Of a stretch of 64,000 nucleotides of DNA, positions 38,452-43,581 are shown piece by piece. This DNA comes from Escherichia phage EcF-vB, in sequence record PV683228.1; one strand, given 5' to 3'. Every line of letters begins with the position of its first letter. Within the stretch, counting starts at the first letter, position 1. Below the pieces are notes generated by a model. It worked only from the letters and a program-made list of their open reading frames with translations, did not search any database and had not been told where the DNA came from. Position numbers and translations under genes: made by a program.

Positions 38452-38527
38452 TGGAGAATCCGAAGGGACTCGAACCCTTATAAACCTGTTTTGCAGACAG
38501 GCACATATCCATTTCTGTCACGGATTC
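38452..38527 (-). tRNA. tRNA-Cys (anticodon GCA)
   Basis: Cloverleaf with T-loop GGTTCGAGTCC; anticodon loop CUGCAAA; CCA encoded. Confidence 0.7.
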
Positions 38528-38532
38528 AAAAT

Positions 38533-38625
38533 TGGAGGAAGATACCAGACTTGAACTGGTACACCGATTTCTCAGCTACTGGCAGTTTAGCAAACTGCTC
38601 CCTTACCTTTTAGGGTTAATCTTCC
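38533..38625 (-). tRNA. tRNA-Ser (anticodon GCT), class II
   Basis: 93 nt with long variable arm; anticodon loop UUGCUAA; perfect acceptor stem. Confidence 0.7.
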
Positions 38626-38626
38626 A

Positions 38627-39361
38627 TTATTTCTGTAATGCGTTCTTCATTTCTGGTGTTGCAATAGTGTCGATTACACCAGTTTTGCAAGCATCATCAA
38701 ACCAGTCTGGTAAGATACCTGCTAAGAACCCATTGATATTCGTTTTAAGGTACTCTGCAATAAGGGCAGCTTCTTCTTCAATCATCTGCACAACTTCATC
38801 TGCATAAGCTGTAATCTTTGAGATACCTTCATTAATCTTACTAACAGCCTGATTAGCTAAATCAGAAACAGTATCAAGACCCTTATCAATAGCGTCTTGT
38901 AAGTCACTTAACACACCATTAACACCATCTAGTGTACTGTTCATCATGTCAATAGCTTTTTGACCATACTCCGTAGCAACACCCATAATACCACTAAATG
39001 GTGTACAACCAACTTGCTCCCCTGCTGCACCCATAACATTGGAATAACCCTTTGCTACCTGCATACGTGATGAAAACTCATCAATAGACTTTTGACCATA
39101 GTCTGTTAGGGTCTTAGTAGTTGCTGTAGTGCTTGTCAGACTTGTTGTAAAGCTGTTTAGAAGAACTGTTGTAAGTCCAGCAGCAACAAGTTTATCCTTT
39201 ATTGTAGGGTCTGTTACAGAGCTAATAGAGCTTACAAGTGATGTAGAGGCAGCTACGGTTCCACCGAGAACTGCTGCACCAGTAATAAGTGGGTTAGAAA
39301 ACCCTCTACCGGTTTTTAAGAGATTAAAAATCTCCTTACCTTGTTCTGTCATCTCTTTCAT
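38627..39361 (-). CDS. hypothetical Ser/Thr-rich protein embedded in tRNA array (244 aa)
   Basis: ORF-track ORF between tRNA genes. Confidence 0.5.
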   Translation of the reverse strand: MKEMTEQGKEIFNLLKTGRGFSNPLITGAAVLGGTVAASTSLVSSISSVTDPTIKDKLVAAGLTTVLLNSFTTSLTSTTATTKTLTDYGQKSIDEFSSRMQVAKGYSNVMGAAGEQVGCTPFSGIMGVATEYGQKAIDMMNSTLDGVNGVLSDLQDAIDKGLDTVSDLANQAVSKINEGISKITAYADEVVQMIEEEAALIAEYLKTNINGFLAGILPDWFDDACKTGVIDTIATPEMKNALQK

Positions 39362-39377
39362 TAAGCACCTTTGAAAT

Positions 39378-39452
39378 TGGTAGTCCAGTGGGATTGAACC
39401 CTCTTCTCATGTTTTTCAGACACGCGCTTTAACCATATAAGCTACTTGGACT
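39378..39452 (-). tRNA. tRNA-Phe (anticodon GAA)
   Basis: Anticodon arm CGUGU-CUGAAAA-ACAUG; T-arm pairing imperfect. Confidence 0.6.
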
Positions 39453-39458
39453 ATAAAT

Positions 39459-39534
39459 TGGGGTGACCTACGGGATTTGAACCCGTATAGACCATGTTCA
39501 CAGCATGGGTCATTACCATTTATGATAAGGCCAC
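39459..39534 (-). tRNA. tRNA-His (anticodon GTG)
   Basis: Anticodon arm CCAUG-CUGUGAA-CAUGG; T-loop GGTTCAAATCC. Confidence 0.7.
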
Positions 39535-39565
39535 ATTTAAGGACTCTCGTAAGAACCCTTAGAAG

Positions 39566-39641
39566 TGGCAGCGGCATAAGGATTTGAACCTTAATATGAC
39601 AGCTTCAGAGACTGCTGCATTGCCAGTTATGCTATACCGCT
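39566..39641 (-). tRNA. tRNA-Gln (anticodon CTG)
   Basis: Anticodon loop CUCUGAA; T-loop GGTTCAAATCC. Confidence 0.6.
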
Positions 39642-39646
39642 AAATT

Positions 39647-39725
39647 TGGTACTCCATATCGGATTCGAACCGATACATAACACAGATTTTAAGTCTGGCC
39701 TCTCTGCCAATTGGAGTAATGGAGC
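39647..39725 (-). tRNA. tRNA with anticodon UAA (Leu-type) but class I length; identity uncertain
   Basis: Anticodon loop CUUAAAA; T-arm AUCGG-UUCGAAU-CCGAU; no long variable arm. Confidence 0.5.
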
Positions 39726-39727
39726 AT

Positions 39728-39802
39728 TGGCGGGGGATGTTGGAATTGAACCAACTTCTTCGATTTCAAAGACCGAGGTTTTAACCTTGTAAACTAATCC
39801 CC
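39728..39802 (-). tRNA. tRNA-Gln (anticodon TTG)
   Basis: Anticodon arm UCGGU-CUUUGAA-AUCGA; acceptor stem with mismatches. Confidence 0.55.
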
Positions 39803-39811
39803 TTTAAATCT

Positions 39812-40369
39812 TTACTTTCTCAGTGGATGAATAAAGAATGCCAACATAACTCTTTCCCTTGAGAATGCTCTTTCTTCTGGGACAACACTTTTTAGTTTCC
39901 ATCCAACATAAATTCTCCAGTAAAACTGTTTACCAAAGACTTTAATTGATGGGATAAAAGCGAATAATCCCCAAGCATTACTGTTCCACATTAGGAGATA
40001 ACCAGTCTGATTATCTTCAGGGTCAGAACTTACGTTGATATTACCTTTCCACTTAGTAACATCTTTTACATCTCTTCCTAATACATGGTAAGAGAAGTTA
40101 TAAGCTTTGTTTCTCCAGAGCCATCCGACTCTCTGCATGTAGACACCCAGCTTACCAATCTTTCTAATCTTAGCCCATCGTTTGACGTGGCCTTCATCAC
40201 CATCAATCGGGTTGTCATAGGTCTCCATCCATCTGAATCCAAAAGGTAGATGTCCTTTCTTCTCACTGTAGAATGGAACTACAAAAGGTGCTAAGATGAC
40301 TGCTAGGGTTGCTGCAATTGGGTCTAGTAAAGCTAAGAAAATCCATGAAGCATACTTCAAATATCTCAT
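39812..40369 (-). CDS. membrane protein embedded in tRNA array (185 aa)
   Basis: Hydrophobic N-terminus WIFLALLDPIAATLAVILAPFVVPF. Confidence 0.5.
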   Translation of the reverse strand: MRYLKYASWIFLALLDPIAATLAVILAPFVVPFYSEKKGHLPFGFRWMETYDNPIDGDEGHVKRWAKIRKIGKLGVYMQRVGWLWRNKAYNFSYHVLGRDVKDVTKWKGNINVSSDPEDNQTGYLLMWNSNAWGLFAFIPSIKVFGKQFYWRIYVGWKLKSVVPEERAFSRERVMLAFFIHPLRK

Positions 40370-40387
40370 TAAATAGCCTCTTTAAAT

Positions 40388-40463
40388 TGGCGCAGGATAA
40401 GGGATTCGAACCCCTATTAACAGCTTCGTAGACTGTTGCTCTATCCATTTGAACTAATCCTGC
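40388..40463 (-). tRNA. tRNA-Arg (anticodon ACG)
   Basis: Perfect acceptor stem GCAGGAU/AUCCUGC; anticodon loop CUACGAA. Confidence 0.7.
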
Positions 40464-40577
40464 TTCCCTACGAGAACACCATACAGTTTTTCACAAACTT
40501 TGTTTTTACGTCTGTTTAGGTATGACGCTCTAAACCTTTTTGCGATGGAGTTATTACTCATAGTGCTCTCCTCAAAT

Positions 40578-42229: not shown

Positions 42230-42304
42230 TGGTTGTAGGTGAGGGTATCGAACCCTCTTCTAACGGTTATCAGCCGTTTGCATTACCATTTATGCTAACC
42301 CACA
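42230..42304 (-). tRNA. tRNA-Ile (anticodon GAT)
   Basis: Anticodon arm AACGG-CUGAUAA-CCGUU; T-loop GGTTCGATACC. Confidence 0.7.
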
Positions 42305-42306
42305 AT

Positions 42307-42383
42307 TGGAGGTTCAGATGGGAATCGAACCCACATTCATAGGGCTTATGAGACCCTTGCATTACCTTATCTGCGACTGAACC
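42307..42383 (-). tRNA. tRNA-Met (anticodon CAT)
   Basis: Anticodon arm AGGGU-CUCAUAA-GCCCU; T-loop GGTTCGATTCC. Confidence 0.7.
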
Positions 42384-42387
42384 ATTT

Positions 42388-42462
42388 TGGTAGAAGTGGA
42401 GGGATTCGAACCCATCGCCTGTCAGATTAAAAGTCTGCACATCACCATTCTGCTACACTTCC
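42388..42462 (-). tRNA. tRNA-Lys (anticodon TTT)
   Basis: Anticodon loop CUUUUAA; T-loop GGTTCGAATCC. Confidence 0.7.
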
Positions 42463-42466
42463 ATTA

Positions 42467-42610
42467 AATTATCTTTGTAGATAAGCTACCCAGACTTGCT
42501 TAAGGTCTGTAGCGATGTGACTTTTTGGGTTTAAATCTAGAATTTACCCTTTCACCCTTTGTGGTCGCATACTCACAGGTAAGCTTAATAACTTATCTAC
42601 AAAGATAATT
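42467..42610 (-). other. 144-bp element bounded by perfect 19-bp terminal inverted repeats (candidate structured ncRNA or MITE-like element)
   Basis: AATTATCTTTGTAGATAAG at 42467-42485 is the exact reverse complement of 42592-42610; internal hairpins; mirrored at 62540-62683. Confidence 0.4.
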
Positions 42611-42916
42611 ACCAGACCGTTGTTTATCATCTTAAGTGCTACCATTACACCAACTCGACCTCTGCCGAGTGAAGGAATCGAACCTTCTCCTTTTCTTTAC
42701 CGAGAAATAGATTGTTTAAGTTTTGCTGTAAACGGTCTTCTGTAAATTTGTTGAGCCAGACCAAGTTTTAAATTTTTCAAAATTAAATTGGCTTGAAATT
42801 TTAAGTAACTTGCTGTATTTGGTCTTCTGCTCCTTTAAAGAATACTCGTAAGAACTCTTTAAGGGAGGGGCTAAATAGCCCTCTCAAAACATCATTTTGA
42901 AATACTTATTATAATT

Positions 42917-42994
42917 TGGCGGTTACGAAGGGACTTGAACCCTCATCATCTCCCGTGACAGGGGAGTATTTTAACCATATTAAACTACATAACC
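42917..42994 (-). tRNA. tRNA-Asp (anticodon GTC)
   Basis: Anticodon arm CUCCC-CUGUCAC-GGGAG; T-loop GGTTCAAGTCC. Confidence 0.7.
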
Positions 42995-43000
42995 TTTATT

Positions 43001-43088
43001 TGGTGTGCCGTGTAGGAGTCGAACCTACCGAGTCTCAATGACAAGGGATTTACAGTCCCCACCGCTACCATCTACGGGATAACGACAC
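43001..43088 (-). tRNA. tRNA-Tyr (anticodon GTA), class II
   Basis: 88 nt; anticodon arm GGGGA-CUGUAAA-UCCCU; long variable arm. Confidence 0.7.
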
Positions 43089-43097
43089 ATTTAAATT

Positions 43098-43174
43098 TGG
43101 CGGTTAGTCAGGGATTCGAACCCTGTGCCATTCGCTTAACAGGCGACCGCACATACCTTATGTGCTTCCTAACC
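43098..43174 (-). tRNA. tRNA-Asn (anticodon GTT)
   Basis: Anticodon loop CUGUUAA; T-loop GGTTCGAATCC. Confidence 0.7.
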
Positions 43175-43251
43175 TTAATACATTGCCAGACCGTGTTTTT
43201 CTTTATCCGCAAAAAGTAGTTTTTGTTGCTGGATACGGTCTTCTGCAAATT

Positions 43252-43327
43252 TGGAGGCGGGTGCAGGAGTCGAACCTGCCGATACCATGCTAATGAGACA
43301 TGTGAGACGCCCTTTCTCTATACCCGC
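43252..43327 (-). tRNA. tRNA with CAT anticodon (Met, initiator or Ile-lysidine type)
   Basis: Anticodon arm CAUGU-CUCAUUA-GCAUG; T-loop GGTTCGACTCC. Confidence 0.6.
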
Positions 43328-43419
43328 AATTCTTAATGACCAGACCAAATCTCTTCTTTGTCCGATTTACCTTCAGATGAATAAGATTAAGTTTGCTGTA
43401 ATTGGTCTTCTGTCAAAAC

Positions 43420-43497
43420 TGGCGTTCCAGAAGGGATTTGAACCCTCAGATATCCACTTTGAAAGAGTGGTGACTTTACCATTTCGTCTACTGGAAC
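43420..43497 (-). tRNA. tRNA-Glu (anticodon TTC)
   Basis: Anticodon arm CCACU-CUUUCAA-AGUGG; T-loop GGTTCAAATCC. Confidence 0.7.
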
Positions 43498-43504
43498 ATT
43501 AATT

Positions 43505-43581
43505 TGGTCTCTGTTGGAGGACTTGAACCTCCGGCCTTACCGCCCCAAACGGAACGCTCTACCAAGCTGAGCTAAACAGAG
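43505..43581 (-). tRNA. tRNA-Pro (anticodon TGG)
   Basis: Anticodon loop UUUGGGG; T-arm GGAGG-UUCAAGU-CCUCC. Confidence 0.65.

Follow-up and report, generated by a model that had tools for sequence, protein, structure and literature searches.

The tRNA array of a Felix O1-like phage and candidate RNA genes in its gaps: a probable tRNA-Trp, a tmRNA-like RNA and Y-RNA-like modules

Identity of the tRNA Array

What could a phage gain from carrying more than two dozen tRNA genes in one array, and what occupies the stretches between them? An earlier note on 64,000 nucleotides of Escherichia phage EcF-vB (PV683228.1; the window) had proposed about 27 tRNA genes, called by eye, interleaved with two ORFs, and had named automated tRNA callers as the check. 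ARAGORN finds 26 minus-strand tRNA genes across 38452-43581, whose boundaries and anticodons agree with the earlier calls (Table 1). It thereby accepts 26 of the approximately 27 genes, and 24 of these 26 reach the gathering score of the Rfam tRNA model, among them the gene formerly listed as "Val?", which is tRNA-Val(UAC) (55.8 bits). For tRNA-Tyr, Rfam returned only the tRNA-Sec model (29.6 bits, below threshold), and the second CAU tRNA was missed by Rfam even at E<=5; both are identical in pinkbiff and Felix O1, where the latter, which bears an initiator-like U1xC72 mismatch, is annotated as tRNA-Met. The other CAU tRNA is either Met or, if modified with lysidine, Ile2. A CCA end is encoded in 25 of the 26 ARAGORN genes, the exception being tRNA-Ser(UGA) with CC-U at its 3' end, as well as in the Trp-like gene described below. 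The two embedded ORFs are present where they had been placed; the DUF7217 ORF has NP_944879.1 (ORF49 of Felix O1) as homologue, while the DUF7338 product has a hydrophobic N-terminus.

The array is of the kind that had been described for large virulent phages: the window belongs to a Felixounavirus, a virulent myovirus of the Felix O1 group with a genome of ~87 kb. It shares 95-96% identity with Felix O1, pinkbiff, PHB11 and further phages, the full 5.25 kb region shows the same 95-96% identity to >200 Felixounavirus records, and the gene order from the terminase to the DUF2828 gene is that of pinkbiff and Felix O1. Clusters of tRNA genes in Felix O1-like phages have been described (PMC3185647, PMC2674420) and those of the relatives are annotated, so that the array itself was already known: it is the ordinary cluster of ~27 tRNA genes familiar from Felix O1-like phages that infect E. 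coli and Salmonella. The seemingly "empty" gaps contain unannotated small RNA genes.

The window is a fold-back assembly with indel errors. A portion of the array recurs there in inverted orientation (62217-64000), with the gap F modules, Lys, Met, Ile, the tmRNA-like RNA (63060-63218), Arg, the Trp-like gene (63477-63559), Ser and Leu, without the Asp-to-Pro tRNAs. The terminase gene contains three frameshifts, yet its protein is 99-100% identical to that of pinkbiff; because of such indels tRNA-Phe and tRNA-Lys(UUU) may be misread by one base. This duplication, the gap contents and the odd form of the Trp gene had been overlooked in the earlier reading.

Table 1. Positions in the window of the tRNA genes and associated features, with the basis of each call.
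Feature	Position	Strand	Basis
tRNA-Cys (GCA)	38452..38527	-	ARAGORN; Rfam 56.0 bits
tRNA-Ser (GCU), long variable arm	38533..38625	-	ARAGORN; Rfam 46.2 bits
DUF7217 / phrog_2114 ORF, 244 aa	38627..39361	-	Pfam E=9e-88; PHROG E=4e-111
tRNA-Phe (GAA), 1 nt less than in three relatives	39378..39452	-	ARAGORN; Rfam 39.5 bits
tRNA-His (GUG)	39459..39534	-	ARAGORN; Rfam 53.3 bits
tRNA-Gln (CUG)	39566..39641	-	ARAGORN; Rfam 59.5 bits
tRNA-Leu (UAA), short variable region, A73	39647..39725	-	ARAGORN; Rfam 47.5 bits
tRNA-Gln (UUG)	39728..39803	-	ARAGORN; Rfam 56.6 bits
DUF7338 / phrog_2143 ORF, 185 aa	39812..40369	-	Pfam E=5e-62; PHROG E=2e-81
tRNA-Arg (ACG)	40388..40463	-	ARAGORN; Rfam 59.8 bits
tRNA-Leu (CAA), short variable region, A73	40578..40655	-	ARAGORN; Rfam 44.0 bits
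tRNA-Val (UAC)	40657..40731	-	ARAGORN; Rfam 55.8 bits
tRNA-Thr (UGU)	40827..40903	-	ARAGORN; Rfam 54.7 bits
tRNA-Gly (UCC)	40911..40985	-	ARAGORN; Rfam 59.6 bits
tRNA-Ala (UGC)	40992..41067	-	ARAGORN; Rfam 62.7 bits
tRNA-Lys (CUU)	41074..41149	-	ARAGORN; Rfam 56.9 bits
tRNA-Leu (UAG), short variable region, A73	41157..41233	-	ARAGORN; Rfam 57.3 bits
tRNA-Ser (UGA)	41489..41578	-	ARAGORN; Rfam 33.2 bits
Non-canonical tRNA-Trp-like gene, anticodon CCA	41592..41674	-	Sequence; compensatory stem changes
tRNA-Arg (UCU), reads AGA	41817..41893	-	ARAGORN; Rfam 62.7 bits
tmRNA-like RNA, ~160 nt, without tRNA-like domain	41933..42091	-	Alignments, covariation
Sigma-70-like promoter, TTGACA-17-TATAGT, 11/12 matches	42186..42214	-	Consensus match only
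tRNA-Ile (GAU)	42230..42304	-	ARAGORN; Rfam 63.4 bits
CAU-anticodon tRNA, G1-C72, U73	42307..42383	-	ARAGORN; Rfam 55.6 bits
tRNA-Lys (UUU), 1 nt less than in three relatives	42388..42462	-	ARAGORN; Rfam 43.6 bits
Y-RNA-like module B	42606..42742	-	Folds; covariation of acceptor-like hairpin
Y-RNA-like module A	42756..42829	-	Read from sequence alone
tRNA-Asp (GUC)	42917..42994	-	ARAGORN; Rfam 63.9 bits
tRNA-Tyr (GUA), long variable arm	43001..43088	-	ARAGORN
tRNA-Asn (GUU)	43098..43174	-	ARAGORN; Rfam 48.0 bits
Second CAU-anticodon tRNA, U73	43252..43328	-	ARAGORN
tRNA-Glu (UUC)	43420..43497	-	ARAGORN; Rfam 60.6 bits
tRNA-Pro (UGG), array's first gene in transcription order	43505..43581	-	ARAGORN; Rfam 57.7 bits
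Two sigma-70-like promoter matches	43728-43700, 43637-43608	-	Consensus only
Ro60-like RNA-binding protein, 471 aa, DUF2828 + DUF7788	43747..45162	-	Pfam, PHROG
Inverted second copy of array part	62217..64000	+	Contig fold-back

A Probable tRNA-Trp

The 27th gene, which the earlier note had counted but left unresolved, is most likely a non-canonical Trp-like tRNA gene that default ARAGORN and Rfam do not call. It encodes A1-U72, G73 and CCA, the identity elements of E. coli TrpRS. Within its 9-nt anticodon loop lies a U-CCA-A core, and the D arm is atypical. In eight distinct homologues 98.8% of the cloverleaf is paired, a share that falls to 31-58% on sliding the 3' partners. Four of the five anticodon-stem pairs show compensatory changes; stem changes of this kind are seen in Michonne, Sf13, Sf16, HP1, EcSzw-2, CHB7 and Wc4-1. 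Among 45 records sampled of 235, none has a tRNA annotated at this locus. The covariation indicates that the gene is probably the 27th tRNA, tRNA-Trp(CCA), which would complete the set for all 20 amino acids.

Codon Compensation and Counter-Defense

The phage genome has a G+C content of 39% and prefers A/U-ending codons as well as AGA, CUA and UUA, codons that its hosts (~51% G+C) seldom use. When the codons of 43 window ORFs were compared with those of 34 E. coli CDS, codons that the phage tRNAs read by Watson-Crick pairing had a mean log2 enrichment of +0.53, as opposed to -0.62 for wobble-only and -0.30 for unread codons. Individual enrichments were seen for AGA (24x), CUA (6.8x), ACA (3.5x), CCA (3.2x), UUA (2.5x), UCA and GGA (2.4x each), AAG (2.3x), GUA (2.2x) and GCA (2.1x). 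Also strongly enriched, without a Watson-Crick phage tRNA, are GCU, GGU, CCU, UCU, ACU, GUU and CUU, which would be readable only if U34 is modified as in E. coli. The comparison of codon usage with the tRNA repertoire, suggested beforehand as a check, thus supports codon compensation, with which the enrichment of Watson-Crick cognate codons is consistent and which was already argued in the Felix O1 genome paper (PMC3185647). Host-type promoters would drive transcription of the co-oriented tRNA genes along the minus strand, and host tRNA-processing enzymes would then release the tRNAs from the transcript. TTGACA-type matches precede tRNA-Pro, just upstream of which lie the two matches within 43608..43728, and the tmRNA-like RNA; the promoter scan gave no excess of sites (16, versus 18.3 in shuffled sequence). 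The phage tRNAs, mostly U34 readers of four-codon boxes together with readers of AGA, CUA, UUA and AAG, would raise exactly these decoding capacities and so free late-gene translation from scarce host tRNAs. Many phage tRNAs (Asp, Glu, Phe, His, Tyr) double abundant host species, for which codon compensation alone offers no explanation.

It is possible, though somewhat unlikely, that the array is selected chiefly for counter-defense and that codon matching is a side effect of low G+C. The phage tRNAs would then stand in for host tRNAs that are destroyed by anticodon nucleases and similar systems (PrrC, PARIS AriB, retron-Eco7 PtuAB, colicin-like enzymes), and the 20-amino-acid set does include tRNAs beyond the need of codon bias, with Lys, Tyr, Asp, Asn and His being typical nuclease targets. 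In experiments tRNA-Lys and tRNA-Tyr of T5-group phages rescued infection from PARIS and retron-Eco7 (PMC11464382, PMC11555353), and escape via the anticodon loop has been proposed (PMC10264068). Furthermore, Ala, Ile, Leu-UAG, Thr and Arg-UCU differ at 10-15 positions between close relatives while their neighbours are identical, an allele-like swapping of single tRNA genes that resembles diversifying exchange. However, codon enrichment gives a strong and specific signal, and the retron/tRNA-Tyr paper includes no Felix O1-like phage. By analogy with the work on T5-like phages (PMC11464382, PMC11555353, PMC10264068), counter-defense could be a second role compatible with codon compensation, with the complete tRNA set acting as a buffer against loss of host tRNAs, be it through host shut-off or tRNA-cleaving defense nucleases.

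RNA Genes in the Gaps of the Array

The tmRNA-like RNA has a conserved UAGUUUUCGU motif (42091-42082), followed by a tmRNA-type resume context AUAAAU and GCA (42047-42045), where a tag of ten codons plus stop starts (ANDNVFLAVA, 42047-42015). The stop codon lies inside a hairpin loop, and two covariation-supported pseudoknots follow 3' of the tag. Across the alignment 93.5% of cells are paired and 20 pairs are doubly changed, a pairing score equalled in 0 of 500 shuffles. ARAGORN with -ps90 outputs the tag, and matches to the Rfam tmRNA_permuted model are sub-threshold. The element is present in >600 unrelated enterobacterial phage records, with 70-81% identity across unrelated phage families and prophages, and is annotated in none of the records listed. 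The putative promoter at 42186..42214 lies ~130 nt upstream of the resume codon.

A role as regulator or decoy of host trans-translation, rather than as translated template, seems unlikely to us. The RNA would pair with the tag region of host tmRNA or titrate factors that bind the message part of tmRNA, in either case blocking tagging during infection. Indeed, in 57 of 62 non-redundant copies the longest stretch that is exactly complementary to E. coli tmRNA coincides with the conserved motif (U)AGUUUUCGU(C), which pairs with tmRNA nt 96-106, corresponding to tag codons 3-6, an 11-mer found in most Enterobacterales ssrA genes sampled. In addition, no conserved tRNA-like domain was found beside the element, so that it could not enter a stalled ribosome via the known route. 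By contrast, the tag frame behaves like a translated ORF: there are always ten sense codons before a stop (TAA, TAG or TGA), all four Ala codons are used at codon 10, and 25% of the codon differences are synonymous in frame, a share that is 2% and 12% in the two alternative frames. The chance of a 10-11 nt match to tmRNA is roughly 0.002-0.03 by our own rough estimate, made without a tool.

The Ro60-like gene lies directly upstream of the array, ~1 kb from the two Y-RNA-like modules. Its product is predicted to adopt a Ro60 fold, as the best 11 Foldseek matches in the PDB of an AF2 model (pLDDT 87) are all Ro60/TROVE proteins (E=3e-8 to 2e-6). Module B, which has no Rfam match, folds into a basal stem (AGACCGUU/AACGGUCU), an internal loop and a closed tRNA-like four-way junction with a T arm, a loop-capped acceptor-like hairpin and a D arm, and the acceptor-like hairpin covaries in three sequence groups. 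Three copies of this layout adjoin the Ro60-like gene in L261. Module A has a basal stem of the same type (AGACCAA/UUGGUCU) and a AUACAGCAA motif. That the Trp-like gene, these modules and the tmRNA-like RNA are decaying, functionless remnants of homing-endonuclease insertions and of genes for tRNA or tmRNA is very unlikely. In favor of decay, HNH endonuclease genes lie at several array sites in relatives (three in Felix O1, one in Michonne), gap F is called a 131-nt "tRNA-Thr" with intron in one record, and standard detectors miss the Trp-like gene. However, compensatory base-pair changes preserve helices of the Trp-like gene, module B and the tmRNA-like RNA, the latter is retained in unrelated phage families and in prophages, and Y-like modules again adjoin the corresponding gene of a phage in which the Ro60-like protein is just 51% identical.

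Comparison with Known Systems

We consider it very likely that the locus is a virulent-myovirus tRNA cluster of the Felixounavirus (Ounavirinae) type, combining a 20-amino-acid set and a codon top-up with an "RNA island." The latter would comprise the tRNAs, two protein genes, a tmRNA-like tag-template RNA and the two Y-RNA-like modules adjoining the Ro60-like gene, and the last three could plausibly serve translation rescue and RNA quality control. The two modules differ from each other in that a simple AU-rich hairpin in module A replaces the tRNA-like part of module B. In the tmRNA-like RNA a tmRNA-type resume site, a tag and two pseudoknots are present, but no tRNA part was found.

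Verification of the array and state of the sequence

The minus-strand array that the earlier note had read by eye as a phage tRNA array proved to be real and correctly interpreted, as seen from ARAGORN, Rfam and the related phages. ARAGORN finds 32 tRNA genes in the window, 26 on the minus strand and six on the plus strand, and the interval and the anticodon list that had been proposed are exactly those of the 26 minus-strand calls. The two protein genes that were said to lie within the array were likewise borne out, both belonging to conserved families. The gathering score of the Rfam tRNA family RF00005 (29 bits) is reached by 24 of 27 genes, counting a Trp-like gene as the 27th, with 33-64 bits. 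Below this score lie the Trp-like gene, tRNA-Tyr, which only the related tRNA-Sec model detects, sub-threshold, and the second CAU tRNA, for which Rfam gives no match even at E<=5; tRNA-Tyr and the second CAU tRNA are identical in the related phages Felix O1 and pinkbiff and are annotated in both. The 3' CCA end is encoded in 25 of the 26 tRNAs, the exception being tRNA-Ser(UGA), which ends in CC-U.

Positions of the features described here, in coordinates of the window
Feature	Position	Strand	Remark
Direct repeats	16124-16887		Three copies of 45-92 nt, 78-87% identical, spacing 327-345 nt; probably within a tail-fibre-type gene
Large terminase gene	36414-38009	minus	Three frameshifts, four frame segments
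tRNA array	38452-43581	minus	26 ARAGORN calls
Embedded protein gene 1			Real member of DUF7217/phrog_2114, a family of no known function
Embedded protein gene 2			Real member of DUF7338/phrog_2143, a family of no known function
Leu-anticodon tRNA, first	39647-39725	minus
Leu-anticodon tRNA, second	40578-40655	minus
tRNA-Thr	40827-40903	minus	Divergent allele
tRNA-Ala	40992-41067	minus	Divergent allele
tRNA-Leu(UAG), third Leu-anticodon tRNA	41157-41233	minus	Divergent allele
Leu(UAG)-Ser(UGA) gap	41234-41488	minus	255 nt
Long imperfect hairpin in this gap	~41330-41250	minus
Weak Rfam miRNA-like match at this hairpin	41230-41328
Trp-like gene	41674->41592	minus	Arg(UCU)-Ser(UGA) gap
tRNA-Pyl (CUA) call	41617-41688		Rejected
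tRNA-Arg(UCU)	41817-41893	minus	Divergent allele
Permuted tmRNA call	41924-42484		Rejected
46-aa ORF	41931-42071	plus	Rejected
tmRNA-like RNA	41933-42091	minus
Recurring part of the tmRNA-like RNA	42056->41932	minus	About 125 nt
tRNA-Ile	42230-42304	minus	Divergent allele
Y-RNA-like modules, putative	42606-42829	minus	Modules A and B
Module B	42742->42606	minus	Asp-Lys(UUU) gap
Module A	42829->42756	minus	Just upstream of module B
Second CAU tRNA	43252-43328	minus
Ro60-like gene	43747-45162	minus	471 aa, just upstream of the array
Fold-back, first arm	41150-52236
Fold-back, turn	~52240-53340
Fold-back, second arm	~53300-64000		Reverse complement of the first arm
Deletion junction in the second arm	62216/62217		1062 bp, equivalent of 42934-43995
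Six further tRNA genes	62688-63993	plus
tmRNA-like RNA, second copy	63060-63218	plus

A 5.25-kb (5251-nt) interval is matched by 349 phage records, 226 of them with at least 80% query coverage and the best 95-96% identical. All belong to the Felix O1-like myoviruses, with Escherichia, Salmonella, Shigella, Citrobacter and similar bacteria as hosts. The order of the cluster is collinear with that of pinkbiff and Felix O1, on the same strand and between the large terminase with a small ORF on one side and the DUF2828 gene on the other, and most of the tRNAs differ from their counterparts in relatives by 0-2 mismatches. The pinkbiff cluster has 25 annotated tRNAs (26 by ARAGORN), and that of Felix O1 has 22 (25 by ARAGORN) together with three inserted HNH endonuclease genes. 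As a tRNA cluster the array is thus already known, being one more copy of the cluster of Felix O1, which was published in 2010 together with its codon-usage rationale (Whichard et al., PMC3185647); the cluster of phage wV8 has been published as well (PMC2674420).

The sequence of the window folds back on itself, such that the first arm is repeated as its reverse complement, the arms being 100% identical in their outer parts and 76-89% identical near the turn, and the loop corresponds to 42.5-43.6 kb of pinkbiff. In the second arm a deletion removes the tRNAs Asp, Tyr, Asn, Met, Glu and Pro, and it also takes 83 codons off the 3' end of the Ro60-like gene; its junction shows no evident microhomology. 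Furthermore, the pieces of the broken large terminase gene are 98.6-100% identical to the pinkbiff protein, which points to indel errors in the sequence. Fold-back and indel errors account for the six "extra" tRNAs as well as for 1-nt shortfalls in tRNA-Phe and tRNA-Lys(UUU). The contig is probably a chimeric or error-containing assembly, or a defective genome, and these features are probably not part of the biology of the array.

A Trp-like gene and variant tRNA genes

The default ARAGORN calls in the window do not include a tRNA-Trp. The array has eight gaps of 77-454 nt, one of which holds a Trp-like gene with a perfect acceptor stem of 7 bp (AUGGGAC/GUCCCAU), the discriminator G73 followed by an encoded CCA, a T arm of the sequence GGGGUUCAACUCC, and an anticodon arm AACGG-CUUCCAACA-CCGUU with U-CCA-A within the loop. 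In E. coli the identity elements for TrpRS are A1-U72, G73 and the CCA anticodon, and all of these are present in the gene and kept in the relatives, except that phage Wc4-1 has G1-C72. The gene departs from the canonical cloverleaf in that its anticodon loop has 9 nt (or 7 nt with a C.A mismatch) and its D loop of 12 nt lacks G18G19, with additional bases following the D stem; this atypical D arm and the 9-nt anticodon loop explain why it was missed by default ARAGORN and by Rfam.

Conservation of the gene extends across Felixounavirus, Mooglevirus, Suspvirus and one Pectobacterium phage, and from group to group the changes in its anticodon stem compensate each other completely (AACGG/CCGUU, GUAAG/CUUAC, GUAGG/CCUAC), with double changes in four of the five pairs among eight distinct sequences, while the T stem contributes one compensated pair. 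Over the same eight sequences the cloverleaf is 98.8% paired, compared with 31-58% when the partners are slid. Among 45 sampled records, out of 235 that contain the gene, none has a tRNA annotated at this locus, and in Erwinia phage phiEa21-4 a canonical tRNA-Trp stands in its place. Relaxed ARAGORN (-ps80) reports a "tRNA-Pyl (CUA)" at an overlapping position, the fold of which is shifted in register against the conserved cloverleaf of the Trp-like gene, and several plus-strand calls made at this setting were likewise dismissed. The one gene that the earlier note had listed without an amino acid is very probably this Trp-like gene. Counting it, the set is complete for 20 amino acids, and an atypical tRNA-Trp that completes the set means that counts by standard tools understate the tRNA repertoires of phages.

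Atypical traits are found in other tRNAs of the array, too. A class II tRNA-Leu is expected to carry a variable-arm stem-loop of more than 10 nt; the variable region of all three Leu-anticodon tRNAs is 4-7 nt. The three nevertheless resemble bacterial tRNA-Leu in their 3-bp D stem, the AAUUGGCAGA D loop and A73, and short forms of this kind also occur in Vibrio phage phi-pp2 and in an uncultured 143-kb phage. One of the CAU tRNAs has a U1xC72 mismatch, an initiator-like trait, and the other is fully paired. Five genes (Ala, Leu-UAG, Ile, Thr and Arg-UCU) show 10-15 differences from one or another close relative in which their neighbours are identical; such divergent single genes amid identical neighbours suggest that, judged from these alignments, single tRNA genes may be exchanged within the array as allelic cassettes. 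At the place equivalent to the Leu(UAG)-Ser(UGA) gap, where the window has a long imperfect hairpin, phage Michonne carries an HNH endonuclease gene.

Role of the array

Codon usage was compared between 43 long ORFs of the window (36.7 kb) and 34 annotated E. coli genes (38.2 kb), a check of the tRNA repertoire that the earlier note had suggested. Codons with a Watson-Crick phage tRNA have a mean log2 enrichment in the phage of +0.53, as against -0.62 for codons read by simple wobble alone and -0.30 for codons unread by phage tRNAs. The highest ratios of phage to E. coli are seen for AGA, CUA, ACA, CCA, UUA, UCA, GGA, AAG, GUA and GCA, for each of which there is a dedicated phage tRNA; AGA alone rises from 0.9 per thousand in E. 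coli to 18.9 in the phage. All seven four-codon-box tRNAs of the array have U34, which, if modified as in E. coli, would let them read U-ending codons too, and U-ending codons are preferred by the phage.

The enrichment of Watson-Crick cognate codons supports codon compensation as the function of the array, which is the standard view and to which the array as such adds nothing new. Compensation leaves the tRNAs of unbiased two-codon families unexplained, for which independence of the host tRNA pool, or protection against tRNA-cleaving defences, would be the natural explanation. Cluster tRNAs of T5-group phages rescue infection from tRNA-cleaving defences (PMC11464382, PMC11555353), and such protection has been proposed more generally (PMC10264068). 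A consensus scan gives promoter-like sites with a TTGACA box upstream of tRNA-Pro and inside the array; overall, the scan is not above the expectation from shuffled sequence.

A tmRNA-like RNA common to many unrelated phages

When the gaps of the array were searched against phage genomes, about 125 nt between tRNA-Ile and tRNA-Arg(UCU) were found to recur in many unrelated phages with 70-81% identity. These include Ackermannviridae of ~157 kb, Gamaleyavirus, Klebsiella siphoviruses of 46-57 kb, and SSU5-like and phiEcoM-GJ1-like phages, and the element is seen in Felix O1-like, Vi1-like, N4-like (Gamaleyavirus), lambdoid and SSU5-like plasmid phages. Matches to it were obtained in 624 phage records; among the records listed, none carries an annotated RNA gene beneath the match. 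Of 5426 complete E. coli genomes, 338 contain it, at 97 chromosomal and 246 plasmid places, again with no annotation at these copies among the rows listed. In five genomic contexts the element is co-oriented with its neighbours; in four it lies within ~2 kb of tRNA genes, and the fifth is the interval from Q to the holin in a lambdoid prophage. Within the window there is a second copy on the plus strand.

The alignment of the element shows AUAAAU followed by GCA AAC GAY..., that is ten sense codons and a stop without an AUG, so that an A/U-rich resume context (AUAAAU|GCA) precedes a tag with a hydrophobic, Ala-rich C-terminus. The tag is ANDNVFLAVA* in the window and, for example, ANEEMYLAVA, ANDDVVLMAA or ANDEQFLAVA elsewhere, while the SsrA tag of E. 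coli, read from the ssrA gene, is ANDENYALAA. A scan of IMG/VR for the tag pattern returned at least 120 contigs. None of 31 distinct tag sequences is interrupted by a stop, codon 11 is invariably TAA, TAG or TGA, and all four Ala codons are used at codon 10. Furthermore, the synonymous share of codon differences is 25% in the tag frame versus 2% and 12% in the other frames.

The structure of the element is also reminiscent of tmRNA. The stop codon of the tag lies in the loop of a small hairpin, around which a second helix closes in the manner of tmRNA helix 5, and two H-type pseudoknots follow downstream, as expected of a tmRNA. In helices 4-7 pairing is 85-99.7% and double changes are numerous, the upstream helix being weaker (88%). 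In 62 non-redundant sequences pairing amounts to 93.5% for the 32 proposed pairs versus 27-44% when slid; double changes occur in 20 of the 32, and none of 500 shuffles reached this level. Two other readings of the same stretch, a 46-aa gene on the plus strand and an AUG-started frame of 8-9 codons, were rejected on the covariation together with the frame statistics. On this comparative evidence we conclude that the element is a real structured phage RNA with a short frame under coding selection.

A tRNA-like domain was sought by T-loop scans, ARAGORN, conservation profiles and Rfam on the five contexts, with nothing consistent found. In most of 65 representatives the T-loop scans and ARAGORN gave no conserved T loop between -420 and +450 nt, and in profiles anchored on the resume codon conservation stops at about -55 and +135 nt. 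With the Rfam tmRNA families the element scores 13.5-33.1 bits against thresholds of 47-84 and does not reach a gathering score, and a model of permuted tmRNA aligns it sub-threshold (22-33 bits vs 47). ARAGORN at default settings makes no tmRNA call in the window. With lowered thresholds it reports a "permuted tmRNA" with the tag, taken here as an artefact that borrows parts of the neighbouring tRNAs. An ARAGORN "ssrA" is also mentioned, without analysis, in the announcements of Felix O1 and Moogle (PMC4392139, PMC4319497), and such mentions, together with the lowered-threshold call, indicate that the tag has been glimpsed before. In the searchable literature (tag peptides, conserved RNA strings, "phage tmRNA") we found no analysis or description of the element.

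In lambdoid-type contigs long stems of the form GGUAAGRGCAUUG...CAGUGCUCUUUCC, of ~18 bp with an internal loop, flank the element (contigs L003 at 2330-2460 and 2620-2710, L007 at 2880-2960 and 3120-3215, and the upstream regions of L025, L014 and L047). Their tips are variable, with a T arm in a few, and they may represent processing hairpins of the RNase III type or degenerate tRNA-like domains.

In 57 of 62 copies the upstream motif with the highest conservation, (U)AGUUUUCGU(C), is exactly complementary to nt 96-106 of the host tmRNA, corresponding to tag codons 3-6, and the target is conserved in most of the ssrA genes of Enterobacterales that were sampled. The UAGUUUUCGU motif of the tmRNA-like RNA is antisense to these tag codons of the host tmRNA. 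Prediction of whole-molecule RNA duplexes with E. coli tmRNA gave meaningless full-length duplexes. The conserved RNA, of 160-190 nt, might redirect or block host trans-translation during infection, either by docking on the host tmRNA via the antisense motif of 10-11 nt or through pairing with a tRNA-like piece that is encoded separately. That these elements form a widespread new class of orphan tmRNA message modules, equipped with a resume site, pseudoknots and an SsrA-like degradation tag of 10 residues yet devoid of a tRNA-like domain of their own, and acting on host ribosome rescue, is a tentative proposal that we consider rather unlikely. If the RNA did act on ribosome rescue, it would be a new means by which phages manipulate the translation quality control of the host. 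What the alignments present is a structured RNA like the message half of tmRNA that is common to many unrelated enterobacterial phages and prophages.

A Ro60-like protein and Y-RNA-like modules

The protein encoded next to the array contains DUF2828 and DUF7788, the only domains hit in Pfam, where TROVE gives no match, and is annotated "RNA-binding protein" in PHROGs; a search of PDB sequences gave no hit at E<=1. Its predicted structure (pLDDT 87, pTM 0.87, from an alignment of 40 sequences) appears to combine the alpha-helical ring of TROVE with a von Willebrand A domain, and the top 11 PDB matches of the predicted fold are all Ro60/TROVE proteins, over the full length and with TM 0.44-0.65, including Deinococcus Rsr and a Thermus phage Ro60. 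The link to Ro60 is thus seen by fold comparison only, sequence searches being negative. Of three distant phages that were examined, two (phi-pp2 and the uncultured 143-kb phage) have the gene of their homologue next to, or not far from, a tRNA array.

Between tRNA-Asp and tRNA-Lys(UUU), module B has an 8-bp basal stem, an internal loop and a four-way junction, in which the T arm and D arm are invariant and the acceptor-like helix is always closed by a loop. This helix is fully compensated across three sequence groups with loops of 4, 6 and 8 nt, compensatory change being seen in three pairs of the hairpin among only five sequences. The topology is that of bacterial Y RNAs of the YrlA type. 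Module A is simpler, with a basal stem of the same type. In the uncultured 143-kb phage a 690-nt interval leads from the Ro60-like gene to the tRNA array, and three elements like module B lie there (~7690-8130), with basal stems that co-vary. One record has the gap annotated as a 131-nt intron-bearing "tRNA-Thr (GGU)"; this reading was rejected, as the acceptor of such a tRNA would pair poorly and the conserved parts are better accounted for by a closed tRNA-like layout. Rfam gives no Y RNA family at E<=10, nor does any other of its families match the modules. These folds are suggestive, on thin evidence, of Y-RNA-like modules that would be putative partners of the Ro60-like protein, and such a pair beside tRNA genes suggests a phage-encoded RNA surveillance tied to tRNA production.

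Comparison with known systems

The closest known counterpart of the array is the cluster of Felix O1, Felixounavirus and Ounavirinae, with which it shares genes, order, location and the codon-compensation argument, the majority of its tRNAs being identical. By contrast to Felix O1, the window cluster is without HNH endonuclease insertions, and among the genes that it retains are Ser(GCU), Ser(UGA), Arg(UCU) and the first of the CAU tRNAs, none of which is in the 2010 annotation of 22 tRNAs; the window sequence, in turn, bears indel errors and the fold-back. Clusters of T5-like and T4-like phages are similar in forming a co-oriented tRNA block in virulent enterobacterial phages, likewise mixed with small ORFs and homing endonucleases. 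These phages are, however, an unrelated lineage, and the window cluster covers all 20 amino acids, with all three of its Leu tRNAs lacking the long variable arm.

Bacterial Ro60 (Rsr) with YrlA and YrlB resembles the window locus in that a Ro60 fold is encoded ~1 kb from RNAs with a basal stem of paired ends, and one module shares with YrlA a distal part like tRNA (T arm, D arm and closed acceptor-like helix). Unlike Rsr, the window protein is of the DUF2828/DUF7788 type without a TROVE or PDB sequence match.

For the tmRNA-like RNA the nearest likeness is the coding piece of two-piece, circularly permuted tmRNA (RF04321 and RF01849, alpha-proteobacteria and others). The resume sequence ...AUAAAU|GCA AAC GA... 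is near-identical to the RF04321 consensus. In both, the tag is short and has hydrophobic-Ala-Ala/Val-Ala at its end, its stop codon is placed within a hairpin loop, and pseudoknots come thereafter. In place of the 70-nt tRNA-like insertion of RF04321, however, phage IME11 has 14 nt, neither a G3:U70 acceptor stem nor a T arm nor a CCA end is conserved with the phage element, and its scores with the two families are 13-33 bits versus thresholds of 47-50. Whole or partial tmRNA genes in phages are known from the mycobacteriophage Bxz1 group, Bacillus phage G and DS6A. An exhaustive survey in 2014 found phage ssrA in mycobacteriophages, Bacillus phage G and the "TLD-only" DS6A alone (Hudson et al., PMC4131195), and does not include the enterobacterial phages that bear the window-type element. 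DS6A maintains a partial tmRNA that consists of the tRNA-like domain alone (PMC4131195), and the window element is its mirror image, having no tRNA-like domain but the message part and the pseudoknots.
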